Below are positions 5,551 through 35,685 of a stretch of 64,000 nt of DNA, in pieces. The notes beneath the pieces are model-generated. The model was not told the origin of the DNA and ran no database searches. It saw only the letters and a list, made by a program, of their open reading frames with translations. Each line of letters begins with the position of its first letter. Positions within the stretch are counted from its first letter, which is position 1. The position numbers were made by a program, and so were the translations under genes. The stretch comes from Candidatus Woesearchaeota archaeon (GTDB lineage: Archaea > Nanobdellota > Nanobdellia > Pacearchaeales > GW2011-AR1): contig CAZJAO010000002.1 of assembly GCA_964544395.1 (NCBI GenBank), positions 5,071-69,070 on the forward strand, given 5' to 3'.

Positions 5551-5551
5551 A

Positions 5552-10632: not shown

Positions 10633-10709
10633 GAATTAATTAATGTATATTTTGAAGAAGTGATTTTGAATATCATAATCTTTAAAAGTAAATTACTTTT
10701 TCTCTTAGT

Positions 10710-11702
10710 ATGAATAAAGTCTTGGTGGCTGGGGCTGCGGGATTCATAGGGCATCATCTTGTAAATTATCTTAAAGACCAAGGAAATTGGGTGAGGGGGG
10801 TCGATATAAAACCAATAGAATACCCGACACATGCCGATGATTTCTTACAAAGAGATTTGAGGAGTAGAGATAATTGTCTTGAAGCTTTAACTTTGCCTCA
10901 TGGAGAACCATTTGATGAAGTCTACCAACTTGCAGCGGACATGGGTGGTGCGGAGTACATTTTTAGTGGCAAACATGATCTTGATGTAATGCACAATTCA
11001 GCTCAGATAAATTTAAATTTTGCAGACTTAAATCAACTTTTCAAGAGACTATTTTATTCTTCGTCAGCTTGCATATATCCCCAAGATATACAAAAAGACG
11101 TAGAAAATACGGGCCTAAGAGAGGAATTTGCATATCCTGCAAATCCCGATTCCGAATATGGCTGGGAAAAAATTTTCAGTGAAAGATTATACCTTACTAT
11201 GATGAGAAATAAAGGTGTGCCCGTAAGAATCGCACGATTTCATAATATTTTCGGACCAGAGGGAACTTGGAAAGGGGGGAGAGAAAAAGCCCCGGCAGCT
11301 ATGTGCAGAAAAGTAGCAGAAGTAGAAAATGGGGGAAGAGTGGAAATATGGGGAGATGGAGAACAAACCAGATCTTTCTTATACATTGATGAGTGTGTTG
11401 AAGGAATCTACAAACTAATGCACTCAGATTTTACTGGTCCCGTTAATATCGGCTCTGAAGAAATGATTTCAATAACTAATCTTGTTTACATGGCCGCAGA
11501 TATTGCAGGGAAAAAAGTAGAAATACAGCATGACTTAAATCCAAATGCTCCTCTTGGAGTTAGAGGAAGAAATTCGCAAAACGATTTGATAAAAGAAAAA
11601 TTAAACTGGGCCCCCAGTTTTCCGCTTAGAAAGGGAATGGAAAAAACTTATTCGTGGGTTGAAGAACAAGTGAAAAAAGATATGAATGTTCATAAGGAAT
11701 AA
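10710..11702 (+). CDS. GDP-mannose 3,5-epimerase (GME-type extended SDR)
   Basis: VLVAGAAGFIGHH...YSSSACIYP...FHNIFGPEGTWKGGREKAPAAMCRKV...WGDGEQTRSF...VRGRNSQNDLIKEKLNWAP. The alignment with plant and bacterial GME is near collinear. Confidence 0.8.
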   Translation: MNKVLVAGAAGFIGHHLVNYLKDQGNWVRGVDIKPIEYPTHADDFLQRDLRSRDNCLEALTLPHGEPFDEVYQLAADMGGAEYIFSGKHDLDVMHNSAQINLNFADLNQLFKRLFYSSSACIYPQDIQKDVENTGLREEFAYPANPDSEYGWEKIFSERLYLTMMRNKGVPVRIARFHNIFGPEGTWKGGREKAPAAMCRKVAEVENGGRVEIWGDGEQTRSFLYIDECVEGIYKLMHSDFTGPVNIGSEEMISITNLVYMAADIAGKKVEIQHDLNPNAPLGVRGRNSQNDLIKEKLNWAPSFPLRKGMEKTYSWVEEQVKKDMNVHKE

Positions 11703-11726
11703 AAAGCGAGTTTTACTATTAACTTC

Positions 11727-13109
11727 ATGAAGATTTTCAAAAAAGAGGGAATCGTCTATGATGTTTTTAACAGAATTAGATTAAGAGACTTCTCCGGAAA
11801 CACAGGATTAGCAATTAAGAATAGTAGTTTTCAATTTTTCACTAATGCTGTTTCAAAAGTTGGAACACTTTTGTTCACTGTGATTATTGCAAGGCTATTG
11901 ATGCCAGAATTATTTGGACTTTACAGCTTGGCATTCTCAACAATTCTCCTTTTTGCCACAATATCTGATTTTGGAATTGGAAGCACTTTAGTGAGATTCA
12001 TTTCAAAAGAAATAGAAAGGCGAAATTTGAAGAAAGTTCGGGCTTATTTGTCTTATTTAGGAAAAATAAAATTTTTTATTATCTCTGTTTTAATCGTCGT
12101 TTTAGTTGTATCTGCAAGATTTATTTCTAACACTTTTTATAACAAGCCAATCTTTCTGGCTTTAATCGCGGGAACACTGTATATTTTATTCTATGGATTA
12201 ACCCTTCTACTGCAATCAGTTCTGCAATCCTTTAACAAATTCCGAGCTATCTTTTTTGGGGAAACTATATTCCAATTTTTCAGGATTATTTTAATATCTT
12301 TAGCAGTTTTATTGTCTTTGAAATTTGCACTTTCAAATGAACTCTTACTGTTTTATCTATTTCTAGCTCTTGGAGTTTCGTATCTCCTTGTAGCCCTCTT
12401 TTTAGGATATATACTTATTAGAAAAGTAAAAATCTTTGGGGCTGAAAAATTAGTCCTTTCCGGAAAACAAAAGAAACAGACAAATAAATTCCTGATTGCA
12501 TTATCTGCTTCTACTCTCTCGGGAATCTTATTCAGTTATATCGATAGGATTATGCTTGGGCATTTCGTGGCTGCAGAATTCATCGGTTACTATACTATCG
12601 CTCTCAGCTTTGTCAGTGCTGCGTCCGTATTTGCTGGATTTGGAAGCGCTTTATTGCCAATATTTAGCAGAGTAAATAAAAATAAATTAGAAATCGGATT
12701 TAAAAAATCAATTAAGCTTTCGTTGATTTTCGGGATAGTATCAACAATTTTAATCCTGATTTTAGCCTCTCCAATAATCTCTATTATTTATGGGAGAGAA
12801 TATCTGGCTGCAACAAATCTTCTGAGATTACTATCTCTATCTTTCTTTACCCTTCCTTTAAGCGGCTTGTATACAGTATATTTTATGTCTAGGAATAAGC
12901 CCCAGATTATTGCGAAACTTTCCATAATCTCTACCGTACTCAATATAGTTCTGAATTATCTCCTTATTACAACCTTATTAGGATATAGCAGTTTTGCAGC
13001 TACTTTTGGAGCAGGAATAGCTCTTTTGTTAAGCCAATTTTTCTACATAGCTGCCTTAGAGATTGCAAGAAGAAGAGATTTAAAAAAAGAAAACAAACCA
13101 ATAGAATAG
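11727..13109 (+). CDS. Oligosaccharide flippase (Wzx/MOP superfamily, AglR-like)
   Basis: About 12-14 predicted TM helices across 460 aa. The architecture is typical of polysaccharide-biosynthesis flippases. Confidence 0.6.
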   Translation: MKIFKKEGIVYDVFNRIRLRDFSGNTGLAIKNSSFQFFTNAVSKVGTLLFTVIIARLLMPELFGLYSLAFSTILLFATISDFGIGSTLVRFISKEIERRNLKKVRAYLSYLGKIKFFIISVLIVVLVVSARFISNTFYNKPIFLALIAGTLYILFYGLTLLLQSVLQSFNKFRAIFFGETIFQFFRIILISLAVLLSLKFALSNELLLFYLFLALGVSYLLVALFLGYILIRKVKIFGAEKLVLSGKQKKQTNKFLIALSASTLSGILFSYIDRIMLGHFVAAEFIGYYTIALSFVSAASVFAGFGSALLPIFSRVNKNKLEIGFKKSIKLSLIFGIVSTILILILASPIISIIYGREYLAATNLLRLLSLSFFTLPLSGLYTVYFMSRNKPQIIAKLSIISTVLNIVLNYLLITTLLGYSSFAATFGAGIALLLSQFFYIAALEIARRRDLKKENKPIE

Positions 13110-13164
13110 GGAGTATGTATTGATGCTTCATAATCTTTAAAAATAGAACAAATTTATCACTTTT

Positions 13165-13863
13165 ATGACGGAAAAATATTCTAGCGTTGCAATTATTCCA
13201 TTCAAAGAAAACAGTGAGAGAGTTCCAGGAAAGAACTTTAAAACTTTTGGGGGACAGCCGCTTTATCAGCATATTATTCAGAAAGCTTTGAAGAGCAATT
13301 TGGAAAAAATATTCATATGTACAAACAGCGAATCCGCGAGAGAAGAAGTTAAAAAAATGGGCCCCCGAGTGGAGATTCTTGGATGTCCTGATTGGTACTT
13401 TGGCAAAACTATTACTGGAGATAAGTTACTATCTGTTCCCGCAAAGGCAATTGATGCGGATATTTATGTTCAACTTTTTGCTACAGCCCCTTTCTTAAGA
13501 CCAGAGACAATTAATGATGCCATAAGCACTCTTCAAGAGAGAACAGAGTATGATTCTGTTTTAACTGTAATGAATAAACATGATTGGGCCTGGTATAAGG
13601 GAAATCCTATTACATATTATCCGGGAAATCTTCCTCGTTCTCAGGATGCTTCGCCTCTTGTGGTTGAATCTACGGGATTATATGCTATGACAAAAGAATC
13701 TTTGTTAAATTTGCAAAGAAGAGTCGGAAATCATCCTTATTTTTTGGAAGTGGATGAAATAGAGGGTTGGGATATTGATACTCCATTACAATTTAAATTA
13801 GCTGAACTATTCATTGAAAATATAGGTGAGATGGAAAAACTAACTAACAAAAAATATTTTTAA
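13165..13863 (+). CDS. Acylneuraminate/CMP-sugar cytidylyltransferase family protein (NeuA/KdsB-like)
   Basis: The N-terminus VAIIPFKENSERVPGKNFKTFGGQPL matches the AIIPAR.xS.RxPxKN...G.PL motif of the CMP-sugar synthetase family. Confidence 0.65.
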   Translation: MTEKYSSVAIIPFKENSERVPGKNFKTFGGQPLYQHIIQKALKSNLEKIFICTNSESAREEVKKMGPRVEILGCPDWYFGKTITGDKLLSVPAKAIDADIYVQLFATAPFLRPETINDAISTLQERTEYDSVLTVMNKHDWAWYKGNPITYYPGNLPRSQDASPLVVESTGLYAMTKESLLNLQRRVGNHPYFLEVDEIEGWDIDTPLQFKLAELFIENIGEMEKLTNKKYF

Positions 13864-13872
13864 TTATCAAAA

Positions 13873-14772
13873 TTATTTTTCTTTTTTAATAAAATCCAGA
13901 ACCTGAATGATTCCTCTTCCCAAATCAACGCAAGGATTATTTATCAGTTTTTGAGGAATATCTTCATAATAAGAATAAGGCGTCACTTTGTAATGGGATT
14001 GTCTTTTTGACTTAGAAACTTCTGATAGATATTCAATCTTGATATTTCCCCCCATTATTTCAACTATCATGGAAAATAAATCACAAACTTTGATGGGGTT
14101 GCCACCGGTTATTATAACTGTTTTATTTCGATATTCATCATTTAATATTTTTAGACTCAATTTTGCAGCATCGGATAGATGAATATATTCTCGTGTTTCA
14201 GAACCATCTCCAGGATATTTTATTATTCCTGTTGTAGCAGCTTCTTTTAGATAACGATACATGCTATTCTTTGCGCTATCCCCCTTACCATAAAGAGTTC
14301 CATATTGTAGGATAGTATAATCTAGTCCATATTGGTTCTGAAATTCTTTTACAAGATGTTCTGAAGCTTTTTTTGTAGATGAATAAATTCCTCCAGAGTT
14401 TCCTTGAGCATAAAGACTGCTGGCATAGACGAATCTTTTTATGCCATTATTTTTACAAGCTTCCATAATTATGCTATTGCCAAGAATATTGTATTTAATC
14501 GCCTCAAGTGGTTTTTCTATGCATTCTCCAATGTCTGCCATTGCCGCTAGATTATAGACTATATCTGAATTTTTAACAGCCTCATTAACTTTGGAATCAT
14601 CTAAAATATCTCCAATAATCATGTGGACACTTCCAAGAAATTTGTCATCAACATTTTTCCTATCAAAAACAGATACTTCATACTCCACATTAAGACACTC
14701 TGCAATCAGCGCATTTCCTAAAAAGCCGCTTCCCCCAAAAATTAATATGCGATTTCCAGATTTATTATCCAT
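13873..14772 (-). CDS. NAD-dependent epimerase/dehydratase (extended SDR)
   Basis: ILIFGGSGFLGNAL Rossmann motif and YSSTK catalytic dyad. Confidence 0.7.
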   Translation of the reverse strand: MDNKSGNRILIFGGSGFLGNALIAECLNVEYEVSVFDRKNVDDKFLGSVHMIIGDILDDSKVNEAVKNSDIVYNLAAMADIGECIEKPLEAIKYNILGNSIIMEACKNNGIKRFVYASSLYAQGNSGGIYSSTKKASEHLVKEFQNQYGLDYTILQYGTLYGKGDSAKNSMYRYLKEAATTGIIKYPGDGSETREYIHLSDAAKLSLKILNDEYRNKTVIITGGNPIKVCDLFSMIVEIMGGNIKIEYLSEVSKSKRQSHYKVTPYSYYEDIPQKLINNPCVDLGRGIIQVLDFIKKEK

Positions 14773-14789
14773 AGAATTTTTCTCTTTTA

Positions 14790-15734
14790 TTAGATGACAC
14801 GAGAGTTAAACTCCTGCCCCATGATAAGATTTAAAACTTCTTTTGTAGCTCCTGTTTCCATATCATATCTGCTTTTTACAGTACAACTGCCTATATGAGG
14901 AGTGATATAACAATTTGTCAAATCTTTAAGACCCCCCCGATAAGGTTCTTCAACAAAACTATCCAGTGCTGCAGATGCATTTGGATTTGATAATAGCCAT
15001 TTGTAAAGAGCGGATTCTTCTACAATCCCCCCTCTTGAGAGGTTCATTAATATAGCCTCTTTTTTCATCTTGTCTAGTTCTCTATAAGAAATAAAATCCT
15101 TGTTGGCTTTGTTTAAAGGTATATGCAAGGTCACAATATCGCATTTCTGGAGTATTCCATCAAGAGAAGAAATTTTGCCGGGTTCAACATCCTTTAACTG
15201 ATTGGCATCTATATCATTTATATAAATCTCTCGCGGATTGAATCCTTTTAATTTATTTGCAACTAATTTGCCAATTCGTCCATATCCAACTATTCCTACA
15301 GAACATTCAGTCAAATCTTTTCCAATATATCTGTTCCACTCTCCTGCCCTAACTCCTGCATCAGTATTCTGAATTCTTCTTAGCATATTTATCATCTGAC
15401 CTATTGTTAATTCTGCCACGGCATTAGAAGGCGCATCCGGAGTATATGTTACAGCTATTCCTCTTTTCTTGCATTCATCAAGGTCTACAGAATCTAAGCC
15501 TATTCCAACTCTTGCAATCAATTTCAAACTGGGGCATAAGTCCAAAACTTTTTTATTATAGAGCTCTATTCCTGCTATGATTGCATCTGGATTCTCTTTT
15601 GCTAAAAAGTCCATCATAGCCGTTTCTGTTATTTTTCTTTCAAAAGGATTGTATATAACATTTTGTCCTTCCAACAGTTTTCGAGATTCTTCTCCAAAAG
15701 GGTGTGTTCCAACAATAATCTTCAAATCTTTCAT
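14790..15734 (-). CDS. D-isomer-specific 2-hydroxyacid dehydrogenase (phosphoglycerate/glyoxylate reductase-like)
   Basis: GIVGYGRIGKLVANKL NAD-binding motif. A catalytic-domain Arg/Glu/His arrangement (SRGG...E...HIG) is present. Confidence 0.7.
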   Translation of the reverse strand: MKDLKIIVGTHPFGEESRKLLEGQNVIYNPFERKITETAMMDFLAKENPDAIIAGIELYNKKVLDLCPSLKLIARVGIGLDSVDLDECKKRGIAVTYTPDAPSNAVAELTIGQMINMLRRIQNTDAGVRAGEWNRYIGKDLTECSVGIVGYGRIGKLVANKLKGFNPREIYINDIDANQLKDVEPGKISSLDGILQKCDIVTLHIPLNKANKDFISYRELDKMKKEAILMNLSRGGIVEESALYKWLLSNPNASAALDSFVEEPYRGGLKDLTNCYITPHIGSCTVKSRYDMETGATKEVLNLIMGQEFNSRVI

Positions 15735-15778
15735 ATTTCTTCTTCTGAATTCTATTTTTTAAAGATTGTGTATCCCAA

Positions 15779-17134
15779 TTACATAACTGATTTTTTATAG
15801 AACTCTAAAATCTTCTTATTAATACTTTCGTAATATATTTGAGAGGGGTCTTTCTTTGAATCAAAATACATATTTTCATTCAATTCTTTTTTATAGAATT
15901 TAATCTGATTTTTATAGGAAGATTTATCTTTTAATTTATTAAAAATCCTGTCTAAACTAAGTAAATCTATGAACTTATCGTCGCTTTCCCATAAATCTTT
16001 CAATGCTTTATCTCCAAATCTGAATATTGGGATTGCATAAAGAAGAGCCTCATAAGCGATAGTGGTGTTATGAATAACTACAAAATCACTTTTTTCTAAG
16101 ATCTCTTTAACTTCGACATTTTTACCCAATGGATGAATATTTGTTTCAGAAATCAGATAAGTATAATTATTTATATCATCCATAGGATGAGCCGTTATAT
16201 CCAAAGTTATTTCAGGATGTTCTCTTGCAAATGCATTCAAGGTTTTTACAATCTCTTTGTTGCTTTCTTCATTTCCTTTTACACTTAAAAAAATTGCTGC
16301 CCTTTTGGGATTAAATTCTTCTTTTTCTTTTTTTATGTCTTTAATGGAATATTTTGGATTTCCTGCAATAATCAATCTTTTTTTATCAACATATTTTTCT
16401 TGAATCTCATAAGTGCTCATCCCCCACACGAGATTATAATCCGAGATTATGTTTTCATTGAGTATGCTTATTGGATTAAAGTCGGGATATTCTATAGTAA
16501 AACCATGCTGAAGATTAAATGTTGGTCTTCTCTCTTTCTTATGTATTAGGGTCATTATAGAATCTTCTCCAAATGCCTGCGAACAGAATGCAATATAGGC
16601 TTTAGGAGCATACTCATTATAAATTTCGTAAAACTGTTCTATTTTTCTGAATCTGGAATAAGTTCTGGTTAAAAAAAGAGAATAATATTTGCCAAGAGTA
16701 GCTTTCAGATTTGCTTCTCTGAATTTCTTCCAGATACCAAATAGTAAGGGAAGATTTGGGAAGCTAAAATGTCCTCTAAGAAATAAGTTTTTTAGCTTAT
16801 TTTCATAACAATCAAGCAAAAGAATTTTGTCCTCGGGGAATTTTTCTATGGCCTTTAGAAAGAATTCATGATGATCTTTTCGGGGCATAAAATAAGATGC
16901 CAGAATTCCGCCCGGGATACCCTTTACAGGATAATGTTCTTTGAAGAAGAGATATTTTATCTTTTTTGCAAATCTCTCAAAAAAACCAACATTCTGATTT
17001 TTATAAAAAGTGTAAGTCTCATCAGCCATTATTGGCCAAAGACCGATCCCCCTATGCTCCATCTTTGAAAAGAACTCTTTTAAAGTTTTAATAAATGGAA
17101 TTTTCTCAGACCATAAGTCTTTCTCATTTATCAT
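15779..17134 (-). CDS. Hypothetical protein, possibly a GT-B-like or capsule-biosynthesis-type transferase.
   Basis: 451 aa with no clear motifs. The C-terminal half (VVIHNTTIAYEALLYAIPI) resembles the donor-binding domain of GT-B or Capsule_synth-like proteins. This is a weak call. Confidence 0.25.
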   Translation of the reverse strand: MINEKDLWSEKIPFIKTLKEFFSKMEHRGIGLWPIMADETYTFYKNQNVGFFERFAKKIKYLFFKEHYPVKGIPGGILASYFMPRKDHHEFFLKAIEKFPEDKILLLDCYENKLKNLFLRGHFSFPNLPLLFGIWKKFREANLKATLGKYYSLFLTRTYSRFRKIEQFYEIYNEYAPKAYIAFCSQAFGEDSIMTLIHKKERRPTFNLQHGFTIEYPDFNPISILNENIISDYNLVWGMSTYEIQEKYVDKKRLIIAGNPKYSIKDIKKEKEEFNPKRAAIFLSVKGNEESNKEIVKTLNAFAREHPEITLDITAHPMDDINNYTYLISETNIHPLGKNVEVKEILEKSDFVVIHNTTIAYEALLYAIPIFRFGDKALKDLWESDDKFIDLLSLDRIFNKLKDKSSYKNQIKFYKKELNENMYFDSKKDPSQIYYESINKKILEFYKKSVM

Positions 17135-17729
17135 TTTTAACTACCCACCAGTCCGTTCTTGAGATTGTTGGTATTATTTTGGTTTTATTGGAAAATTCAA
17201 AAAGTGCTCGAAGAATATCTTTGTTGAATTTTTTATTAACTATATCATGTCCGGCCAGAATTCCATTCGGCTTAACCTTTGGAAAATAATTATCAATGTC
17301 CCTTTTTACATATTCATAGTCATGATTCCCATCAATGTAAATAAAATCCGCTTCAGGAATTTCTTTCACTGCATCATCTGAAAATTTTCTGATAAATACT
17401 ACTCTATCTTTATACTTCCCTAATTTCTTCTGCGTATCAAGGTACATTTTAGGTAGCCCCTTCTCGCTTGTTTCGGAATCTCTTTTTTTGTATTCTTCAT
17501 AAGATTGATAGGGGTCTATTACATAGAGTTTCTTGACGTTCAACTCTTTAAACATATTAAGTGCATTCTCGCCTTTGTACGTCCCAATTTCGACAACAGT
17601 GATTGGCTTATTGTTAAAATAATTCTTGGCAAATCTTACTGAATGCCTTGGGAAAGGTCTTACAAAGTTTATATTAAATTTCTTTCCAAGCATTTCATTA
17701 ACTTCGTGAAGTATCTTTAAATTTCTCAT
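17124..17729 (-). CDS. Class I SAM-dependent methyltransferase
   Basis: VVEIGTYKGENAL is SAM motif I. IYIDGNHDYEYV is typical of the Methyltransf_24/O-MT family. Confidence 0.55.
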   Translation of the reverse strand: MRNLKILHEVNEMLGKKFNINFVRPFPRHSVRFAKNYFNNKPITVVEIGTYKGENALNMFKELNVKKLYVIDPYQSYEEYKKRDSETSEKGLPKMYLDTQKKLGKYKDRVVFIRKFSDDAVKEIPEADFIYIDGNHDYEYVKRDIDNYFPKVKPNGILAGHDIVNKKFNKDILRALFEFSNKTKIIPTISRTDWWVVKNDK

Positions 17730-18640
17730 TTTACCCTGCTTTCTACCTCTTGAATAATAGCATCCTGCATTTTTATATTATACAGGGCATCAGGTTCGGA
17801 GACCAATAATTCACCCGCTCCTTTAATCGCAGATATGAATCTCCGAATAGAAACATTTAATGGATCCTCAACACACATGGTTTTTCCATCATATTCTAAT
17901 TTATTTCTGTAAACCCCTCCAACATTTTCTACTTTTCTCTCAAATTCAACTCCGTTTATGTAAAAAGTCATTTGTCTTGGTCTCTCTTCCTTTACTTTCA
18001 TTTTGTAAGACACAGGCACACCCCCATAATCAAAAGCAATTGTTGCAATCTCATTTCCTAGAAGAAAATCCAATCTTTCAATCGGTCTCTGCCCGAGAAG
18101 TTTAATTAGAAAACTGTTCATATGAGGGAGAACATCTGAAGCCATATTTACAAAGCCCTTTTTAGCAGGTTCCATGTAAACTGAGAATTTTTCAATATCG
18201 TTCTTAAGCGGTGCAGGAATTTTCTCTAAAAGAGAAATCCATTGGGTGTTTGTAGACAAAATTTTACCATGGGATTTTGCCAGATTAAACAACTCTTCAA
18301 CAACTCTATGATTATCATATTCGGAATCTAGAACAAGAGGTTTTTCACATAATACATGACTATTATAGCTGAGGCAACGCCTTATCTGTCTAGAATGATA
18401 TTCTGGAGGCGTGCAAATACTAACTACGTCTGGTTTTTCTTTTTCTAATAACTTTTCCAAATCCCAATAGGGCACGGCATCAATTCCGTAAGAAAGTTTT
18501 AGCTTTTCAGCCCTTTCTTTTGCAGTTTTTTCTGAAGATGTTAAAATAGCGACAACATCACATCCCACATTTTTAAATTCCCTTGCATGAAATTCTCCAA
18601 TTTTGCCCGGACCTAAAATCGCTGCTCTTAATTTCTCCAT
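17726..18640 (-). CDS. Gfo/Idh/MocA-family NAD(P)-dependent oxidoreductase
   Basis: AILGPGKIGEFHAREF...PDVVSICTPPEYH is the N-terminal Rossmann motif of the family. Confidence 0.7.
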   Translation of the reverse strand: MEKLRAAILGPGKIGEFHAREFKNVGCDVVAILTSSEKTAKERAEKLKLSYGIDAVPYWDLEKLLEKEKPDVVSICTPPEYHSRQIRRCLSYNSHVLCEKPLVLDSEYDNHRVVEELFNLAKSHGKILSTNTQWISLLEKIPAPLKNDIEKFSVYMEPAKKGFVNMASDVLPHMNSFLIKLLGQRPIERLDFLLGNEIATIAFDYGGVPVSYKMKVKEERPRQMTFYINGVEFERKVENVGGVYRNKLEYDGKTMCVEDPLNVSIRRFISAIKGAGELLVSEPDALYNIKMQDAIIQEVESRVK

Positions 18641-18652
18641 GTTAGAAACAGA

Positions 18653-21370: not shown

Positions 21371-21502
21371 TAATCTATAACTATAATATCTCTTTTTAAA
21401 GATTTATGAAACAAAAATTCATATTCCAAATCTTCTTGTTTTGGCTGAATTTACTGATTTGAGCATCATAAAATTTAAAATCTGTCACCATCTTATATCT
21501 AA

Positions 21503-26967: not shown

Positions 26968-27003
26968 ATTTAATATAGTCAGAAACTTATTTTAAATGTT
27001 AAT

Positions 27004-28491
27004 TTATTTTTTATTTGCTTCATTAATCTGGTCTATAATCTTTCTCAGTTCCAAATCCCTTCCTTTTTTCTCCTCTTCTGTCACTCCCCATTCGGCAGTT
27101 ATAGAATCTTCCAATGCAACCCATGCATGGGTTTTATTTGCAGGAATTTTTATTGATTCCCCCATGGACAGCACCTTCTCTTCATCACCAAGAAGAAGTT
27201 TTATTCTTCCCTTAACAATAACAAGATATTCATCTCTGGGATGAAGGCATCCGCCTCTGGCATAGCCTGTCTTTGTTTCTAAAAAGGTAAACTCTTTGTT
27301 ATTTTCTAAAAGGTTGCTTATCAAGTAAATGTATCCTCTATTGTCTTCATGTATCTTCTTCATATTCAATCCTGAATTGTAGAACTCCTTAATCTTCTCA
27401 CTGATGTAATTTATCTGTTCTGAAGTGATTGCTGAACCATTTGGAAGCCAGAGTATATTCTTGGATAAAAAGGATGAATTAGGAAAATCTGAATCATTGC
27501 CCTGATTCTTGTAAGGAGGATTAATGTGGACTGCAGGCCAGCATTCTCTCGCGGAAATTTCATTTTTGATTAAAAATTCAACAAGAGCAGTTCGATTATT
27601 TGCGATTATCTCAATCCATAAGGGAATTTCTTCAGAGTTATAAGCTGGAAATTTAACTTCCCTAATGTCCTTTAATGCATTTTGATATAATGCTCTTTGA
27701 TTTGACAGCATCTGTTTTTTACTTTCAATTTTTCTGAACTGTGCAAGAGCTAATGCAGCAGATAGGTCATTGAATTTTAAATTATAACCAACTTTTTCAT
27801 GGATGAATTCTTTATTGCTGAATCTTCCAAAATCTCTCAATCTCCTAAGAGCTTCATAATACTTGTCATCATCTGTAACAATTATGCCCCCCTGGCCGCT
27901 TGTGATTATTTTGTTGGATTGTAATGAAAAGATTCCCATTTTGCCGATTGTTCCTAAATATTTGCCAGATTGGTCTTTAGAGCCCAAAGCACCCGCTGCA
28001 TCTTCAATTACTGTAAGATTATGTTTTGAAGCCAAATTCATGAGCTCATTCATATCTGCAGATCTTCCAAGAATATGGACGGGAATTATTGCAATTGTTT
28101 TTTCATTTATTTTTTCTTCAATTTTACTAATATCAATTGTTGCTCTTTCTTTTTCAACATCTACTAAAACTGGTTTTCCACCAGCCCACTCTACAGAAGT
28201 AGCAGTGGCAATCATTGTCAAATCCGGAACAATGACTTCAAAATCTTCTTTATTTCTTATGATAGCATCAGCTTTAATTGCAAGAAATAATGCCGCAGTC
28301 GCATTTGTTGTTAGAAGGACATGCTTCACCCCAAGATATTTTTTCAATTCCTCTTCAAGCTGTTTTGTTTTTGGTCCTTCATTCACGTAACCTGCATTTA
28401 GTACTTCAGTAACTTCTTTGATTTCTTCGTCTCCAAACTTCGGTTCATTCCAATTAATTCGAACCATATTAAAAGTCATACATAGTATCAT
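27004..28491 (-). CDS. Fusion of a DegT/DnrJ/EryC1/StrS-family PLP-dependent sugar aminotransferase (N-terminal, about 370 aa) with a C-terminal cupin domain.
   Basis: The aminotransferase part has IPVHILG, DAAGALG and FSLQSNKIITSGQGG (Schiff-base Lys region). The C-terminal 120 aa has cupin His/Glu motifs (GGCLHPRDEYLVIVKG...HAWVALE). Confidence 0.65.
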   Translation of the reverse strand: MILCMTFNMVRINWNEPKFGDEEIKEVTEVLNAGYVNEGPKTKQLEEELKKYLGVKHVLLTTNATAALFLAIKADAIIRNKEDFEVIVPDLTMIATATSVEWAGGKPVLVDVEKERATIDISKIEEKINEKTIAIIPVHILGRSADMNELMNLASKHNLTVIEDAAGALGSKDQSGKYLGTIGKMGIFSLQSNKIITSGQGGIIVTDDDKYYEALRRLRDFGRFSNKEFIHEKVGYNLKFNDLSAALALAQFRKIESKKQMLSNQRALYQNALKDIREVKFPAYNSEEIPLWIEIIANNRTALVEFLIKNEISARECWPAVHINPPYKNQGNDSDFPNSSFLSKNILWLPNGSAITSEQINYISEKIKEFYNSGLNMKKIHEDNRGYIYLISNLLENNKEFTFLETKTGYARGGCLHPRDEYLVIVKGRIKLLLGDEEKVLSMGESIKIPANKTHAWVALEDSITAEWGVTEEEKKGRDLELRKIIDQINEANKK

Positions 28492-28855
28492 TTACTTCAG
28501 GAGAAACAAAAGGTTCTTCAGTGCATCCTATCATGGTTGTTCCTTTTTTTACAAATACTTTATGTGCTACCTGTGCTGGAATTAAAATACTACAATTCGC
28601 TTTTAAGGAATAATTATTCTCTTCTTTTGTTTCTATATCGACAAGTTGGATATCTAATTCTCCGTCAATAACGTAAAGCAATTCCTGATATTTATGAAAA
28701 TGTCCTGCTAATTGGGCGTCTTGATGAATCTTGTAAACCTTGGTTTGTTTTGCTGTAAAACCTCCAAAATCACCGTTAAATGCAGTAGAAAGGGTTCTTC
28801 TTGCATCTTCATGGTCAATTCCTCTCTCTTGAAAAATGACTTTGTCTATTGTCAT
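28469..28855 (-). CDS. FdtA/WxcM-like cupin, a candidate NDP-4-keto-6-deoxyhexose 3,4-ketoisomerase.
   Basis: 128 aa with HFHKYQELLYVIDGELDIQLVD...AHKVFV. Size and motifs resemble FdtA/QdtA. Confidence 0.55.
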   Translation of the reverse strand: MTIDKVIFQERGIDHEDARRTLSTAFNGDFGGFTAKQTKVYKIHQDAQLAGHFHKYQELLYVIDGELDIQLVDIETKEENNYSLKANCSILIPAQVAHKVFVKKGTTMIGCTEEPFVSPEVNDTMYDF

Positions 28856-29940
28856 TTTACCAATGCTCTCCCTAATTCTCTTCCTTTTTCAATATAGAAA
28901 TCATCGGGATGTTCTTCATGCATTGGGACAATTCCTTTTTCTTTCATTTTATCTTTTAAATCTGATGCAATCATCATCTTTACTAATTCTTTAAACTTAA
29001 TTTTAGGTTCCCAGCTAAGAATATTCTTTGCCTTTGAAGAATCGCCAAGTAACGCTGGAACTTCTGCCGGTCTTTTGTAATTATCACTTACTTTAACGTA
29101 ATCTTCCCAATTTAATCCAAGCAAGTCAAATGCTTCCTGAACAAATTCTCTTACACTATGTGTCTCTTTTGTTGCTATAACAAAATCATCAGGAACATCA
29201 TGTTGCAAGATCCTCCAGATAGCTTCAACGTATTCTTTTGAAAATCCCCAATCTCTCTTAGCTTCCAAATTTCCCAAAGACAAATCTTTTTCTTCCCCTA
29301 CAATTATTTTTGCAATGCCTAAAGTAACTTTTCTCGTCACAAAATTCAAACCTCTCCTTGGAGACTCGTGGTTGAATAAAATTCCGTTGGATGCGAAAAT
29401 CCCATATGCCTTTCTGTACATTCTTGTTAAATGATACGCAGCCAATTTAGAAATTCCATAAGGGCTTTGGGGAATCATAGGGGTCCATTCATTTTGAGGT
29501 GGTGGAGAAATTCCAAACATTTCACTTGAAGAGGCTTGATAATATTTGCACTTCAAATTCATATCTCTTATTGCCTCTAGAATTCTTAATGGACCCAAAG
29601 CATTGTAATTAAGCGTAGATTCTGGGTTCTCAAAGCTTATTCCTACGTGGCTTTGTGCAGCCATATTGTATATTTCATCAGGATTAATCTTTTCTAAAAC
29701 ATTTCTTATGCTTGAAGAATCTGATAAGTCTCCATAAAGTAAAAAGAATGGAGATTCATCTGTTTTTCCGAATTGTGTATCATATTTGTCTAAGTGGTCA
29801 ATTCTCTTAGTATTTGGAAAACTTGCTCTTCTTATAACTCCTCTCACATAATATCCCTTTTCAAGAAGTAATTCTGCAAGATAGCTTCCATCCTGTCCGC
29901 TTATACCAAAAATTAAAGCAACTTTTCTTCCATTTATCAT
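28852..29940 (-). CDS. gmd: GDP-mannose 4,6-dehydratase
   Basis: ALIFGISGQDGSYLAELLLEKGYYVRGVIRRASFPNTKRIDHL...YQASSSEMFG...ILFNHESPRRG...LGNLEAKRDWG. Collinear with Gmd. Confidence 0.9.
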   Translation of the reverse strand: MINGRKVALIFGISGQDGSYLAELLLEKGYYVRGVIRRASFPNTKRIDHLDKYDTQFGKTDESPFFLLYGDLSDSSSIRNVLEKINPDEIYNMAAQSHVGISFENPESTLNYNALGPLRILEAIRDMNLKCKYYQASSSEMFGISPPPQNEWTPMIPQSPYGISKLAAYHLTRMYRKAYGIFASNGILFNHESPRRGLNFVTRKVTLGIAKIIVGEEKDLSLGNLEAKRDWGFSKEYVEAIWRILQHDVPDDFVIATKETHSVREFVQEAFDLLGLNWEDYVKVSDNYKRPAEVPALLGDSSKAKNILSWEPKIKFKELVKMMIASDLKDKMKEKGIVPMHEEHPDDFYIEKGRELGRALVK

Positions 29941-30006
29941 AAATTGATTGGGTATAATTTGCTTTATAAGTTTTATTAAACTAAGATATAGAATAAAAAA
30001 ATTGAA

Positions 30007-30534
30007 CTATTTTAAGACTTCCAGTTCGTATTCCATTTCTGAAGAAGGCAATATCCATGCAAAAAATCTGCAGTAAAATTCCTGATTAAGATTTATTATT
30101 GGATTAAAAAGCCAGTTTAATCTGCCTGAACGACCTATTCCGAAATTAATTTTTATTTTTCGGGCTTTGAACATATCCTTGTCTGTTCCAACTTCATGAG
30201 AATACGTCCCCTTCTGAAAGTAAGTGAATGTTCTTGGAGAAAAGAATCTTACATGTGTCGGGTCGTTGTATTGCCCCCAGGCAGAATAGAAGGGAGTTTT
30301 TACATGGATAATTGCGCCATTCTTGCATACCCTATGCAAATCATGCATCAAAGGGATAAAATTCTTGATATGTTCCAGAACATGATAAGCCATAACTCCA
30401 TCTATAGAATCGTCCTTAAATGGCAGGGGTGTTTTTTCCAAATCACAAACCTTGTCAGGATTAACTAGGGGAGAAGAGTCTACATTTACATATCCTTCTC
30501 GTTTGTCACGCCCGCAACCAATATTTAATTTCAT
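30007..30534 (-). CDS. Class I SAM-dependent methyltransferase
   Basis: MKLNIGCGRDKREGYVNVDS and VMAYHVLEHI are Methyltransf_11/23 motifs. Confidence 0.55.
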   Translation of the reverse strand: MKLNIGCGRDKREGYVNVDSSPLVNPDKVCDLEKTPLPFKDDSIDGVMAYHVLEHIKNFIPLMHDLHRVCKNGAIIHVKTPFYSAWGQYNDPTHVRFFSPRTFTYFQKGTYSHEVGTDKDMFKARKIKINFGIGRSGRLNWLFNPIINLNQEFYCRFFAWILPSSEMEYELEVLK

Positions 30535-33287
30535 GCTGTTACTGTTAAATTATCAAATGCTCCATAAGTGCCAGATGTCTGGGTAAATTCTGCTTTAGAT
30601 AGAATATTTGAAGGATAGTTTGTTTTCCAGATTTTTATTGGACCATCAAATCCATTGTAATAAATAAAATCTCCCGTGAATCCTTGAGCCTTTAAACCTT
30701 GCAATAAAGAGTCATCTTGTGCATGAGCTAAAGTTATTGTAGGATACTCATTGAACGGATCATTCATTAAATAAAGTTGCGCAAACAAGCTGTTGAAAAC
30801 TTTTGGAGAAAGATATATTGCAGCGCCAAAGTTGTCAATCTGGATGCCTCCTGCAGCAGTCTGCCCGAGACTAGAAAGAACATATGCTGCTCCTGCATTT
30901 CCGCTCCCGAAATCAACTAATTTGTTATTGAAATAAAGATATCTTAAAGGAACACTAATTTGCTGACCATTATAATAAACAACTTCCTGTGGTTGTGAAA
31001 AAGAAATTGCACCCGTTGAATTGGTCTGATTTGAGTTTAAGACAAGTGCGATTACATAAGCCTGTCCCTGGGGGATTAATATCTGCCCTTGTGAAGTATT
31101 GTATATCATATCTTGGTCTATGGGCACAACGTATTGATATACTCTCGTTGTAGTCCCATTGATTGTCTGAGTCTGGCTTGGACTGGATGGAAATACTTGA
31201 ACTGTCGAAGCCCGGTCACTCAAAGTAGCATCGCTCCCAATAAGAGAATAAGCAGAATATTTTCCTAAATCAGTAGGGTCTATCAATAGATAAGAAACAT
31301 TGTTTGATTTCATAAAGCTAAGAGCGAGATTTGGATTGGGTTCTGTTAGAACATATCTACCAATCATATAATCTCTGAATGTTCCTTCAAAATGTCCGCC
31401 ATCAGAGAGAGTCGGTCTTTGACCTAAATATTCAATAGCATACCCATAATCCCACCAATGAACAAATACCGACCCAAGAGGGGTGCTGTTTCTGACCCAA
31501 GCCATTGCATCGTCCCATTGAGATCCGTAACTTCCTATGCCCATGTATTTGGCCTGATATGAAGAAGAACTGTACAAAGTGTAGAAACTTATGGCTGTTG
31601 CTATTATTGCAGCAATTAATAATACCGCCAAAACCATCTTCAATAGATCATCTTTGCTTTTCTTGAAATAACTTGCAAGATTAAATATCAAATAACCAAC
31701 AAAGATGCACATGTATGGACTTACAATTGACATTATGTAAGCAGCAGTATTCGCCGCGATAATCATGACTAATATCGTTGAAAATAAAACTAATAGCTCT
31801 GGCGAAATTTCAATATGGTCTTTGAAATAGAGATAAATGCAATAGCAGAAGAAGATAATCATGCTCCCAAATAAAAATAATTTACTGAGGAAACTTGACC
31901 CGTTTAAAATTGCACTGCTTGCAGAAATTCTGCTTAATAATATTCCCGAGATAAGTAAAATCCAAGAGAGTACAAACCAGACTCTTCTTTTTTTCTCTTT
32001 AATTCCCATTGATAAATTAATACCCAAGGTTATCAAACCGGCAAAAAATAACCAGAAGAAAATTTTATCTGTTTGAGATATCCAATCAGTAGTATACGTT
32101 TGCTGGTTTTCTGCAACAGTGATACTTAGTCTATCTGCACCAAGAGGATGGAAAATTTGTGTAGTAACATTAGAAATAAATGAAAATAGACTTCCCTGTA
32201 ACGTTATTATTATTAGACCCAATAATCCTGCGATTATAATTCCCCAGATTACATGATTCCTCTTCAACTTTTTTAAGGGAGTCTTGTCTGCAAATTTTAT
32301 AATTAAAAAATCTACTATAATAAATAATAGGGTGAAAGATAACAGGAAGCTGGTTGGATTTATGAGGACCCTGTTTAATGCAGAATTTAGTGGAAAACCA
32401 AATACATATGTGCCCAATAAACTAAACAAGACAAAAGCGATGTAGAAAATTAAAAATTTAGGCAAGTCTTTTGCTTCTGTCTCCAGATTCTTAGCTTTCA
32501 AAACCCACACTATGAAAAAGCTTAAGGGAACAATCATAGGAAGAAACTCTGAGATTCCTCCCCAGCTGACAATGTTCAGTGCAGTAAGAGCTCCAATGGC
32601 AATTCCTAGCAAAAGACTGATTAATAATACCTTTTTTGGTTTTTTATGTTCTTCTTTTTTCTTGCTTAACCACTTTAAGGCGCAGGTGTAAGACAGTAGT
32701 ACTGCAAAGAAAATCATAGTTCCAAGAGCATCATGGTCGGAGAATCCCGCCACACTTCGATATAAATAAGTAGGTATTACTGTTAAAAATAACGCCCCGA
32801 TTATAGCCGCCAGCTTAGACTTTGTTAGAATATAAATGAGAAAGTAAAAGATAACTAGCCCTATAGCAAAGCCGATTACAGGATAAATTACATCAACGAA
32901 ATTCAATGTGATACTGCCATTAAATGCATGAACAAATTTGTATAAATCCACTAAAACATAAGGGAGAATCTCTGAAGAAAAAGGAATGTTTCCCGCGCCA
33001 GCTCTAATGGTATCAATTGCAGGAAGGTGACCAGTTTGCAGAATTATTGATGCCTCTCTTAACCAATAAAAGCAATCCAGCTCTAGCTGAGGCACATATT
33101 GCCCGGTAGTATGATCAATAAGTGATGGAAGATTTTGCAGCCTCATAAGAACCGCAACTATGACAATAATCGCTAATAGCACCAAAGAGAGTATGGTCAT
33201 TAACTTTTTTTGTTGGAAAAATTTTGAAACCTTATGAAAACTCTCTTTTGTCTTGTTAAGATTGAGTTTAATTTCTTCTTCTGGCAT
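30531..33287 (-). CDS. aglB: Oligosaccharyltransferase AglB (STT3 family)
   Basis: A roughly 13-TM N-terminal domain precedes a C-terminal soluble domain carrying the diagnostic WWDYGY motif (VHWWDYGYAIEY). 918 aa. Confidence 0.85.
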   Translation of the reverse strand: MPEEEIKLNLNKTKESFHKVSKFFQQKKLMTILSLVLLAIIVIVAVLMRLQNLPSLIDHTTGQYVPQLELDCFYWLREASIILQTGHLPAIDTIRAGAGNIPFSSEILPYVLVDLYKFVHAFNGSITLNFVDVIYPVIGFAIGLVIFYFLIYILTKSKLAAIIGALFLTVIPTYLYRSVAGFSDHDALGTMIFFAVLLSYTCALKWLSKKKEEHKKPKKVLLISLLLGIAIGALTALNIVSWGGISEFLPMIVPLSFFIVWVLKAKNLETEAKDLPKFLIFYIAFVLFSLLGTYVFGFPLNSALNRVLINPTSFLLSFTLLFIIVDFLIIKFADKTPLKKLKRNHVIWGIIIAGLLGLIIITLQGSLFSFISNVTTQIFHPLGADRLSITVAENQQTYTTDWISQTDKIFFWLFFAGLITLGINLSMGIKEKKRRVWFVLSWILLISGILLSRISASSAILNGSSFLSKLFLFGSMIIFFCYCIYLYFKDHIEISPELLVLFSTILVMIIAANTAAYIMSIVSPYMCIFVGYLIFNLASYFKKSKDDLLKMVLAVLLIAAIIATAISFYTLYSSSSYQAKYMGIGSYGSQWDDAMAWVRNSTPLGSVFVHWWDYGYAIEYLGQRPTLSDGGHFEGTFRDYMIGRYVLTEPNPNLALSFMKSNNVSYLLIDPTDLGKYSAYSLIGSDATLSDRASTVQVFPSSPSQTQTINGTTTRVYQYVVPIDQDMIYNTSQGQILIPQGQAYVIALVLNSNQTNSTGAISFSQPQEVVYYNGQQISVPLRYLYFNNKLVDFGSGNAGAAYVLSSLGQTAAGGIQIDNFGAAIYLSPKVFNSLFAQLYLMNDPFNEYPTITLAHAQDDSLLQGLKAQGFTGDFIYYNGFDGPIKIWKTNYPSNILSKAEFTQTSGTYGAFDNLTVTA

Positions 33288-33327
33288 TATGCTATATATT
33301 TAATTCATTTAAAAAGATTATGAAAAC

Positions 33328-34332
33328 TCAAAGATTATTAGTAATAATTAGAGCCAATATGATTATCACTATTTGAAATCCGTTTATTAAATTGACAACA
33401 TCTTTTTCATATACTTTGTGGCTTAGCTTTACTTTCTTTAATATTATTATCGCTAAATGTTCCAGCCCGTAAACTTTATCATAGGCTAAATCAAGGCTTC
33501 CATCTTCATTTGGTTTGCCAAAGCTTTGTTTTTTCAATCTTCCTCTTGATTTTAATACCATTTCAATTATGTAGGGAATGAAGAATAAAACTGCAACTAA
33601 TTCCAAGCCGCCGATAATTGCTACTGCTGCGAACATCAAACCAATAGCATAAGTCATGGTATTGCCTGCAAAAACTCTTGCGGGATATCTGTTAAATATG
33701 TAGAATGCAATTAGAGCAGCCACCATGATTAAAGCAATGAGACTTAGCCAGCTTTCATTATGCATATATGCAACAAATGCAAGCGCAGATAAAATTAAGA
33801 TTCCTTGTCTTGCTTCCAGTCCATTATATCCTGCTAAAAAATTATATGTCGTGGTTGCACCAACAACTCCGATTGGAATTGCTATCAAAGGATATAACAA
33901 TCCAATGTTAATTCCAAATATTGAAGAATTTCCTGCATTGATTACCATTAACGGTACGGCCGAGAATAAAATAAGAATTAGCCTCGAACGAATTGACAAG
34001 CCTCCTCTTTTCCAGCCAAACAAATCATCAATCAATCCAACTCCGGTTACTAAGAATAAAGAGCTTACTATTGCAAAAATCAGTATTAAAGTTCCATCGT
34101 CTGGTGACTTGAAATAAAATGTCCTGATTGCAATATACAAGAAAATACCGACGAGAGTTCCAAGAATTACAATAATTCCGCCTGAACCTGCCACATTTCT
34201 TTCTCTTTTAGGCTTGTTCATATCTTCCCACACCAAATCTATTTGTTTTGCTTTCTTAATCCACATAGGCATTATTAAAAGAGTCACAAAGAAACTGATA
34301 AGAATTGTCCCGAATAATAATGGTTCAACCAT
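33328..34332 (-). CDS. UDP-GlcNAc:dolichyl-phosphate GlcNAc-1-phosphate transferase family (MraY/WecA/AglH-like GPT)
   Basis: It is polytopic, with IDDLFGW (DDxxG), NFLAGYNGLE (NxxDGxDGL-like) and VFAGNTMTYAIG (VFMGDTGS-like). Confidence 0.7.
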   Translation of the reverse strand: MVEPLLFGTILISFFVTLLIMPMWIKKAKQIDLVWEDMNKPKRERNVAGSGGIIVILGTLVGIFLYIAIRTFYFKSPDDGTLILIFAIVSSLFLVTGVGLIDDLFGWKRGGLSIRSRLILILFSAVPLMVINAGNSSIFGINIGLLYPLIAIPIGVVGATTTYNFLAGYNGLEARQGILILSALAFVAYMHNESWLSLIALIMVAALIAFYIFNRYPARVFAGNTMTYAIGLMFAAVAIIGGLELVAVLFFIPYIIEMVLKSRGRLKKQSFGKPNEDGSLDLAYDKVYGLEHLAIIILKKVKLSHKVYEKDVVNLINGFQIVIIILALIITNNL

Positions 34333-35223: not shown

Positions 35224-35252
35224 TAAGAAAGAAACGTAGAGGAATTTTTAAA

Positions 35253-35651: not shown

Positions 35652-35685
35652 ATTTTTAAGAAATTAATTTGCTTTTAAACTTTCC

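Follow-up and report, generated by a model that had tools for sequence, protein, structure and literature searches.

An island of predicted N-glycosylation genes with a fixed position and variable content in a DPANN archaeon

Location and extent of the island

We analysed a stretch of 64,000 nt (the window) from contig CAZJAO010000002.1 of assembly GCA_964544395.1, labelled Candidatus Woesearchaeota archaeon, which carries an island of glycan genes that includes aglB. A listing of open reading frames (ORFs) and three Pfam scans revealed an uninterrupted run of carbohydrate genes at positions 10710-34332 (23.6 kb). It comprises 21 genes, g01 to g21, each of which encodes a carbohydrate-related enzyme or transporter, and the largest intergenic gap within it is 133 bp. 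A preliminary description of the window had drawn exactly these bounds. The run of sugar genes indeed stops at SecF and SecD (8064-10632, + strand, PF02355), the conserved left boundary, and at a SpoIIM-family membrane protein (34363-35223, - strand, PF01944 with 58 bits), the conserved right anchor, and ten further ORFs of the window scanned outside the island gave no convincing glycosylation-related match. The right flank (34363-37704) consists of the genes for SpoIIM, prefoldin alpha, an EMC3/YidC-like protein and SecY, followed by the spc ribosomal-protein operon.

The preliminary description had counted 24 genes. We find 21, a number that independent gene callers also report for other assemblies, and no gap exceeds 133 bp; the higher count would arise from splitting a 905-aa triple fusion and a 495-aa double fusion. 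Overlaps of 4 to 36 nt occur between adjacent genes in the stretch g11 to g20, the convergent pair g10/g11 counted in, so that this part is packed like an operon. Contig misassembly had been named as a possible flaw. It can be ruled out: six independent metagenome assemblies with exactly this AglB are collinear with and 99.98–100% identical to window positions 20531-43287, and the gene order of the left half, including the 905-aa fusion, is repeated in four further contigs.

Pfam and NCBIfam assignments could be reached for 19 of the 21 genes, and Gmd reaches the equivalog level. All domain classes expected beforehand, namely AglB, a GlcNAc-1-phosphate transferase (GPT), Wzx, glycosyltransferases (GTs), Gmd, DegT and four methyltransferases, were recovered by Pfam, NCBIfam and PDB searches and AlphaFold2 (AF2) models. 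The expectation had been staked on AglB, the GPT and the GTs in particular, and the domain searches confirm all three. As 21 contiguous genes bring aglB together with GTs, sugar-modifying enzymes and a candidate flippase, the locus has the make-up of an archaeal agl cluster.

AglB, the GlcNAc-1-phosphate transferase and the flippase

The AglB gene (g20, 30531-33287, - strand) encodes an STT3-family oligosaccharyltransferase of 918 aa, which matches PF02516 with 32.1 bits (cut-off 24.5) and PF21436 with 31.8 bits (cut-off 23). The characteristic WWDYGY motif lies in the sequence VHWWDYGYAIEY at residues of about 610-621, and WWDYG is also found in the AglB homologues of the related genomes L007, L010 and L017. 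The protein contains about 14 hydrophobic segments, and we could read LELDCFYWLR (with an Asp of the EL1 type), GFSDHD(AL) and (S)ITVAE in it, consistent with the N-terminal multi-span domain and the acidic motifs of the family. The motifs, which we take to be an Asp in EL1, DxD, and TIxE or SVSE in EL5, were matched by reading the sequence. A HMMER alignment placed DLGKYSAY opposite the DK motif DWAKFNAI of P. furiosus, with Tyr at the final M/I position. The PDB matches are the C-terminal domains of Pyrococcus AglB (E 5e-12) and human STT3A/B. Judged from its sequence, g20 is an AglB/STT3 enzyme (GT66), and it is predicted to transfer a glycan to the Asn of N-X-S/T sequons. AglB itself contains 12 such sequons, compared with 5.7 expected from its composition.

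Directly next to aglB lies the gene for the GPT (g21, 33328-34332, - strand), a 334-aa protein of the Alg7/AglH/DPAGT1 type of UDP-GlcNAc:polyprenyl-phosphate GlcNAc-1-phosphate transferases (PF00953 with 93.4 bits, cut-off 27). The two genes had been thought to flank the island; they are instead adjacent at one end of it. The nearest PDB entry is human DPAGT1 (E 1.3e-12), ahead of MraY (5.7e-6), and WecA reaches only 26 bits in NCBIfam. The stretch NFLAGYNGLEA aligns to NILAGINGLEA, the NxxAGxNGLE motif of the eukaryotic and archaeal type. On these family grounds, the enzyme would be specific for UDP-GlcNAc and dolichyl phosphate. The gene for the multi-span SpoIIM-family protein (PF01944) is found directly upstream of that for the GPT here and in most of 15 related genomes; this placement could mean a functional link to the synthesis of lipid-linked oligosaccharides.

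At the other end, g02 (11727-13109, + strand) encodes a Wzx/MOP-family flippase for lipid-linked oligosaccharides (PF01943 with 84 bits, PF13440 with 49 bits) that has about 11 hydrophobic segments and stays beside SecD in relatives. No Wzy-like polymerase, ligase or chain-length regulator was found in the island, where Wzx, AglB and the GPT are the only proteins with multiple transmembrane segments. This fits a single oligosaccharide, and not a polymer, being handed to AglB.

Two secreted proteins encoded in the window (1816-2292 and 62112-63092) had been proposed as sequon-rich substrates. The two show a hydrophobic anchor at the N-terminus and a signal resembling a lipobox, and by their sequences they are plausible AglB targets. 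The claim of sequon richness did not hold, since their 4 and 5 N-X-S/T sites compare with 3.4 and 4.5 expected, which is no enrichment beyond composition.

Glycosyltransferases

Four of the GTs could be assigned by Pfam. Two belong to GT4 (g12, 23206-24285, - strand, PF00534 with 87.5 bits; g15, 25876-26967, - strand, PF00534 with 83 bits), one to GT11, the alpha-1,2-fucosyltransferase family (g14, 24992-25879, - strand, PF01531 with 115 bits), and one to GT26, the WecG/TagA/CpsF family (g13, 24282-25010, - strand, PF03808 with 98 bits, NCBIfam superfamily model TIGR00696 with 72 bits at a cut-off of 69). GT26 enzymes add a second sugar of the ManNAc(A) type onto GlcNAc-PP-lipid. By analogy with this known family activity, g13 is predicted to be the second-step ManNAc(A)-type transferase acting on such an acceptor.

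The product of g10 (21503-22435, + strand) has no Pfam or NCBIfam match at all, including to the GNT-I family, and we therefore do not count it as a member of the GT13 sequence family. Its AF2 model (pLDDT 92.8) shows a GT-A fold with an EDD motif, and the best Foldseek matches are the GT13 structures 5GGI and 1FO8 of POMGnT1 and GnT-I (E 2e-10 to 1e-9). The likeness is one of fold only, with 12–15% identity and a TM-score of about 0.5. In contrast to GT13, g10 belongs to a large prokaryotic family with more than 7,000 homologues, some of them labelled 'nucleotide-diphospho-sugar transferase' or HlpA.

Sugar-nucleotide enzymes and methyltransferases

In this group, g18 (28852-29940, - strand) encodes GDP-mannose 4,6-dehydratase (Gmd; PF16363 with 404 bits), which passes the equivalog cut-off of TIGR01472 with 433.5 against 415 bits. 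Near it, g16 (27004-28491, - strand) encodes the 495-aa fusion of a DegT sugar aminotransferase (PF01041 with 310 bits) with a C-terminal cupin (PF07883 with 33 bits). It matches perosamine synthetases with 158–161 bits, just under its two best PDB matches, and the LegC family with 241 bits, under the NCBIfam cut-off; the fusion is kept in L007 and L025. Between the two lies g17 (28469-28855, - strand, PF07883 with 33 bits), a small cupin and possible keto-sugar isomerase or epimerase that has no counterpart in L007 and L024. Neither this cupin nor the C-terminal one of g16 gave a significant match in the PDB.

Two genes encode enzymes of the short-chain dehydrogenase/reductase (SDR) type. The extended SDR of g01 (10710-11702, + strand, PF01370 with 119 bits) is a sugar-nucleotide epimerase or reductase whose weak best NCBIfam match is GDP-L-fucose synthase (89 bits at a cut-off of 500), which gives a family-level assignment only. 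The product of g04 (13873-14772, - strand, PF01370 with 136 bits, also matching NmrA and NAD_binding_10) is a candidate NDP-4-keto-sugar reductase, and no equivalog-level assignment was reached for it in NCBIfam. A Gfo/Idh/MocA oxidoreductase, or sugar dehydrogenase, is encoded by g08 (17726-18640, - strand, PF01408 with 78 bits), with weak NCBIfam matches to inositol 2-dehydrogenase and archaeal UDP-GlcNAc 3-dehydrogenase.

An unusual gene of the group is g09 (18653-21370, - strand), the triple fusion of 905 aa (PF08484 with 169 bits, PF08421 with 80, PF13489 with 63 and PF01370 with 154). Residues 1-315 form an extended SDR resembling NDP-hexose 4,6-dehydratases (motifs STSDK...YDSSK), residues of about 330-490 an epimerase- or isomerase-like cupin, and residues 501-905 a sugar 3-C-methyltransferase of the TylC3/TcaB9 type. 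In a PDB search the last part matched TylC3 (4RV9) with 277 bits, residues 11-412 of 4RV9 aligning with g09 501-901, and TcaB9 with 243 bits. The domains for zinc-binding Cys and S-adenosylmethionine (SAM) and the C-terminal domain are thus aligned end to end, which places this part in the NDP-sugar 3-C-methyltransferase family of TylC3, TcaB9 and KijD1, and the Cys-rich signature CRVCGS...CENCHLC is visible in the sequence. The cupin is weakly similar to the CapF cupin and RmlC in the PDB (E about 1e-3). The order of SDR and cupin is that of CapF, and unlike CapF the SDR of g09 has the D-K pair (STSDK), which is typical of CDP-glucose and UDP-GlcNAc 4,6-dehydratases and not of the CapF-type reductase. 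What sets g09 apart from all these enzymes is that three activities are joined in one 905-aa protein, and that it is part of an archaeal glycosylation locus and not of an antibiotic pathway. The architecture recurs in about 30 metagenomic protein clusters, and the 905-aa product was also called in independent assemblies.

In relatives the SDR domain exists as a standalone gene (54–66% identity), followed by genes for DegT and a Hexapep acetyltransferase. Dehydratase, aminotransferase and acetyltransferase form a classic trio. Since the standalone homologues head such a trio, a dehydratase is the best reading of the g09 SDR from its sequence, and the comparison shows that the module downstream of it was swapped. 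L008 and L011 have a standalone C-methyltransferase instead of the fusion.

Three further genes, g07 (17124-17729, - strand, Methyltransf_24, PF13578 with 67 bits), g11 (22400-23209, - strand, PF13489 with 45 bits and PF08241 with 43 bits) and g19 (30007-30534, - strand, PF08241 with 33 bits), encode what are by their domains generic class I SAM methyltransferases. PDB searches for g07 and g11 were uninformative as to the methyltransferase substrates. Counterparts of g11 are 57–64% identical in L022, L023 and L025. There is an overlap of 4 nt between the aglB stop and the start of g19, a gene for a small enzyme; in L025, a distant relative, the gene that immediately follows AglB is 70.5% identical to it.

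The earlier characterization of the island as unusually rich in methyltransferases holds in comparison with what we take to be the content of model archaeal agl clusters. Within the clade it does not, as the stretches seen of related islands hold between one and three methyltransferase genes, in some cases joined by a gene for a C-methyltransferase or a radical-SAM enzyme. Radical-SAM enzymes were seen in the islands of the P0025 contig and of L025 (15477-16598), one of them with a B12-binding domain. They may C-methylate as well, in which case C-methylated sugars would be a recurring theme of the clade. The decorated glycan envisaged before fits the gene content well: 6-deoxy sugars agree with Gmd and the second 4,6-dehydratase-like domain, amino sugars with DegT, C-methylation with the TylC3/TcaB9-type domain, and O- or N-methylation with the three further SAM methyltransferases.

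A cytidylyltransferase module with a GT-B family carrying an invariant His-Pro

The left part of the island contains a conserved group of three genes. The first, g03 (13165-13863, + strand), encodes a cytidylyltransferase of the CMP-ulosonic-acid synthetase family (PseF/KdsB-like; PF02348 with 71 bits). Its NCBIfam matches, PseF with 63.6 bits and KdsB with about 47 bits, are all under the equivalog cut-offs. The second, g05 (14790-15734, - strand), is a D-isomer-specific 2-hydroxyacid dehydrogenase (PF02826 with 156 bits) that resembles PGDH (211 bits) and glyoxylate/hydroxypyruvate reductase (glyoxylate reductase 183 bits), both below the NCBIfam cut-off. The third, g06 (15779-17134, - strand), encodes a soluble GT-B protein of an uncharacterised family with only 30 close homologues and no Pfam match above threshold.

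The AF2 model of g06 (pLDDT 93.4) retrieved GT-B folds with Foldseek; the 19 best are UDP-GlcNAc 2-epimerases, and GT4 enzymes were also found at the top. H316-P317 is invariant among the family. It aligns to KLHPS in a wider family of 3,410 representatives and is conserved there as well, so that both the GT-B fold and a conserved His-Pro (HP) are present. Family profiles did not accept the protein: NF046086 (BFO_1060) gave 29.7 bits against a cut-off of 200, TIGR04396 26.3 against 125, and PF05159 (KpsC/S) 15.6 against 20; 13 of the 30 family members match PF05159 weakly. An attempt to assign g06 to a solved structure by sequence failed, the profile search having reached only KpsC with an E value of 0.69. 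As all scores are under the family cut-offs, we do not file g06 as a member of the known HP-motif families and state only that it may work like them.

In Tannerella forsythia, the BFO_1060 family uses CMP-activated derivatives of pseudaminic or legionaminic acid as donors for transfer onto ManNAcA, and it has the HP motif of sialyltransferases (PMC5420450), which is shared with beta-Kdo transferases (PMC10148158). In common with BFO_1060, KpsC/KpsS and the sialyltransferases, g06 is a soluble GT-B protein, about 450 aa long, whose HP motif is invariant and whose gene lies beside one of the CMP-ulosonic-acid synthetase family. The GT26 of the island could make a ManNAcA-type acceptor such as that used in T. 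forsythia (PMC5420450). The best functional reading of g06 is that of a candidate transferase for a CMP- or CDP-activated donor.

In each of the six islands examined, g03, g05 and g06 lie near one another; four of these islands also have a Gfo/Idh/MocA oxidoreductase, and two a SIS domain protein. No NeuB/PseI/KdsA-type synthase was found in any of the six. In this the module differs from the known systems, and the 2-hydroxyacid dehydrogenase is its constant partner instead.

Comparison with related genomes

By SecY (up to 97% identity), the closest genomes are metagenome-assembled genomes labelled Nanoarchaeota, Woesearchaeota or Pacearchaeota. The organism carrying the island is a DPANN archaeon of the Woesearchaeota/Pacearchaeota type. 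The block of SecY, EMC3, prefoldin, SpoIIM and GPT is kept in most of the 15 related genomes (L007-L021), and AglB comes next in many. SecDF bounds the far side in four of the five related islands viewed from there (L022, L023, L024 and the P0025 contig). In relatives, the interval between SecDF and the SpoIIM-prefoldin-YidC-like-SecY/spc block always holds glycan genes, and its content is mosaic. Close relatives therefore have the same slot and flanks with differing content, which is the pattern of replacement flexible glycotype islands (PMC4033161, PMC4535781); variable, species-specific clusters are also known for archaeal N-glycosylation (PMC11407970).

In the closest relative, L024 (contig_71988), the interval is roughly 35 kb long. 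SecY is 97%, Gmd 95%, GPT 86% and AglB 72% identical between the two, compared with 32% for g03, 35% for g05 and 45% for g06; g03 and g05 are nearer to more distant genomes (52–61% identity). AglB is much more diverged here than its neighbours Gmd and GPT. Across lineages, the AglB-proximal genes are collinear and 53–75% identical, in contrast to the mosaic SecD-proximal genes. The locus is thus a 'glycotype' island whose position is fixed and whose content varies, with a conserved AglB-proximal block and a SecD-proximal part that is exchanged among lineages.

The slot also takes in mobile and defence genes: in L024 (12687-17066), an AAA_16 protein, a transposase, an N6/N4 DNA methyltransferase and a MvaI/BcnI-type restriction endonuclease lie inside the island. 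The islands of L024 (19072-20909) and L022 (11386-12700) further contain an NTP_transferase/GHMP-kinase fusion, a SIS_2 isomerase and a phosphatase of the inositol-monophosphatase family. This set resembles an NDP-heptose pathway and is absent from our window. L022 (GCA_026002795.1, BPGA01000001.1) is a 535-kb contig with a SecDF-bounded island and proteins labelled 'Candidatus Parcubacteria bacterium'. Its island has several of the same gene families in an order similar to that of the archaeal clade, and the taxonomic label may be wrong.

A comparison of composition had been suggested as a check for horizontal acquisition. It left no trace of it: GC is 0.340 in the island and 0.349 in the flanks (p=0.15), GC at third codon positions (GC3) 0.285 and 0.293 (p=0.39), and tetranucleotides are indistinguishable. 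Cassette replacement is nevertheless visible when relatives are compared.

Surroundings of the island

The island lies at the meeting point of two long co-directional gene arrays, at 5014-13863 (+ strand) and 22400-49777 (- strand). The first runs from S13-S4-S11-RpoD over three tRNAs and SecF/SecD to g01-g03, the second from the spc ribosomal operon over SecY, the YidC-like gene, prefoldin, SpoIIM, GPT and AglB on to g11. As the two arrays converge there, the glycan genes are located at the tails of core gene arrays. Further to the left, a lone 5S rRNA gene (3499-3612, + strand) adjoins a tRNA-Leu gene (3353-3436, - strand), with no 16S or 23S rRNA gene in the window. About 1.1 kb downstream are devoid of ORFs of at least 100 aa. 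A scan of the window for non-coding RNA found nothing beyond tRNAs and 5S rRNA.

Proposed pathway and alternatives

The gene identities used here come from the tool results, and we infer the order of steps and the substrates from family membership. The Alg7/DPAGT1-type enzyme g21 would make dolichyl-diphosphate-GlcNAc (Dol-PP-GlcNAc), to which the GT26 enzyme g13 would add a second sugar of the ManNAc(A) type. At the cytoplasmic face, the two GT4 enzymes, GT11, g10 and g06 would then lengthen the chain and cap it. Among the donors, Gmd (g18) would provide GDP-4-keto-6-deoxymannose, which could be converted into a perosamine-like amino sugar by g16 with the cupins and possibly into GDP-fucose by g01, for use by GT11. 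Dehydration, epimerisation and C-3 methylation of an NDP-hexose by g09 would lead to a branched 3-C-methyl-6-deoxy sugar, completion of which would fall to a separate reductase, either g04 or g01, and g03 would activate an acidic sugar with CTP for g06. The three further SAM methyltransferases may add O- or N-methyl groups. Wzx (g02) would flip the finished oligosaccharide, and AglB (g20) would move it to the Asn of N-X-S/T sequons in secreted proteins.

The preliminary description had seen a protein-glycosylation island making a methylated, aminated deoxy-sugar glycan, and all in-silico tests available support this. From the sequences, such a glycan and protein acceptors for it are very probable. 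We consider it likely that the locus is more specifically an N-glycan locus of a DPANN archaeon, primed with Dol-PP-GlcNAc, flipped by Wzx, completed by AglB and of the replacement flexible island type.

Several points weigh against this interpretation. Most enzymes are far below the NCBIfam equivalog cut-offs, which leaves specificity at the family level, and all substrates as well as the order of the GTs are presumed from family membership. The island lacks a sugar-1-phosphate nucleotidyltransferase for GDP-mannose or the g09 substrate and a canonical UDP-GlcNAc 2-epimerase to feed GT26; these functions must be encoded elsewhere, or the predictions are wrong. The same applies to the NeuB/KdsA-type synthase that g03 and g06 would need and that the island lacks. 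As L008, L009, L011 and L013 show, a GPT gene need not be linked to AglB: GT genes, methyltransferases and a 2-epimerase-like gene, but no AglB, come directly after it in these genomes. Euryarchaeal N-glycans have been reported on dolichyl phosphate (Dol-P) instead of Dol-PP (PMC8993221), and so the Alg7-type role cannot be assumed. Finally, a section of the island such as the SecD-proximal module could act in the synthesis of a different glycoconjugate.

This last point can be extended to two pathways that share one slot, with g11-g21 making the N-glycan and g01-g10, with their own Wzx, a different glycan of the surface, for instance an O-glycan, glycolipid or capsule-like coat. The two blocks do evolve differently, one collinear and the other mosaic, and they are on different strands with convergent boundaries at 13863/13873 and in the 22400-22435 overlap; relatives also keep GT-rich islands beside the GPT without an adjacent AglB. 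However, the island has a single phosphosugar transferase for initiation and a single flippase, and since these fall into different blocks, neither block is self-sufficient; machinery by which a second product could be polymerised, ligated or exported was not found. We therefore regard two pathways as unlikely. The presence of typically bacterial families (GT26, GT11, the TylC3-type C-methyltransferase and Wzx) and of g10 homologues with about 50% identity in Bacteroidota raises the further question whether the island is a recently acquired foreign, bacterial polysaccharide cluster and not native archaeal protein glycosylation. This we hold to be very improbable, given that GC, GC3 and tetranucleotide usage equal those of the flanks, that the position and much of the gene set are common to the whole archaeal clade, and that the anchors are archaeal or eukaryote-like (AglB, and a GPT nearest to DPAGT1).

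A third alternative concerns g06 alone. It could be a divergent enzyme of the UDP-GlcNAc 2-epimerase type that gives UDP-ManNAc to GT26, its neighbourhood with g03 and g05 being coincidental. The Foldseek results point in this direction, as do weak Epimerase_2 matches of 3 of the 30 family members and the presence of GT26 in an island without a canonical 2-epimerase, which in L008 and L011 appears, canonical-looking, right after the GPT. Yet TM-scores of only about 0.5 at 9–14% identity are expected of any GT-B fold, and matches to KpsC/S (13 of 30) outnumber those to Epimerase_2 in the family. The weak NCBIfam matches are to the BFO_1060 nonulosonic-acid transferase family and TIGR04396, GT-B enzymes that depend on CMP-sugars have the HP motif, invariant here, as a hallmark (PMC10148158, PMC5420450), and L023 has a g06 homologue plus a separate Epimerase_2-like gene. 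An epimerase role for g06 thus seems quite unlikely. If g06 is instead a transferase within the single N-glycan pathway preferred here, the locus might even combine two chemistries new to archaeal N-glycans, a 3-C-methyl-6-deoxy sugar made by a fusion enzyme and a cytidine-donor cap added by a new HP-motif GT-B family; as a joint claim this is rather doubtful. The acid of the cap may be a ulosonic acid that the symbiont scavenges from its host and only activates and transfers. Alternatively, a 2-ulosonic acid may arise by oxidation through the Gfo-type and 2-hydroxyacid dehydrogenases and not by aldol condensation. Sialic-acid-scavenging bacteria are a precedent for activating and transferring an acquired acid.

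Relation to known glycosylation loci

Clustering of agl genes in Euryarchaeota, for example in Haloferax volcanii and Methanococcus, is noted in PMC8993221, which cites Kaminski 2013 and Nikolayev 2020. The island shares with these clusters, whose content is species-specific (PMC11407970), the placement of AglB directly beside GTs, nucleotide-sugar enzymes, methyltransferases and a candidate flippase. It differs in being primed by an Alg7/DPAGT1-type transferase encoded next to AglB, in lacking Dol-P-sugar enzymes (GT2, AglD/AglJ type), and in having bacterial-style GT26 and GT11, a C-methyltransferase and a CMP-type module. It is also found in a DPANN genome, in a fixed slot between SecDF and SecY.

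The organization is equally reminiscent of bacterial Wzx-type O-antigen loci, Campylobacter pgl and the glycotype islands (PMC4033161; for the cell-wall island of Haloquadratum, PMC4535781). Common to all are conserved flanks around variable sugar genes, cassette replacement without a compositional signal, mobile elements in some versions, and a logic by which a single transferase initiates, a single flippase translocates and a single transferase performs the final step. Unlike in the O-antigen and pgl loci, the final step is that of an archaeal AglB acting on protein Asn and not of a WaaL ligase or PglB, and unlike in all of them the flanks are core protein-export and ribosomal operons.

Implications for DPANN surface glycans

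AglB-linked glycosylation clusters are well known in Archaea, and the locus described here is a new example in a little-known lineage. DPANN archaea live attached to other cells, and their surface is the site of this interaction. In the literature we found no N-glycan structure for DPANN archaea, only aglB-type genes and predicted sequons, and nothing specific on the AglB gene neighbourhood in Woesearchaeota or Pacearchaeota.

Three features make the locus noteworthy: the fixed slot between export and ribosomal genes with its mosaic content, the triple fusion, and the synthase-less trio of cytidylyltransferase, 2-hydroxyacid dehydrogenase and HP-motif GT-B protein. Enzymology has well-defined targets here in the fusion enzyme for a C-methyl sugar and in the HP-motif GT-B family, which is uncharacterised. 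The genome of this archaeon is expected to be around a megabase in size, so that an island of about 24 kb is a large share of it. The exchange of content among lineages within a fixed slot suggests that host specificity or viruses exert a diversifying pressure on the surface glycan, and the locus provides a concrete and testable parts list for the surface glycan of a DPANN archaeon.

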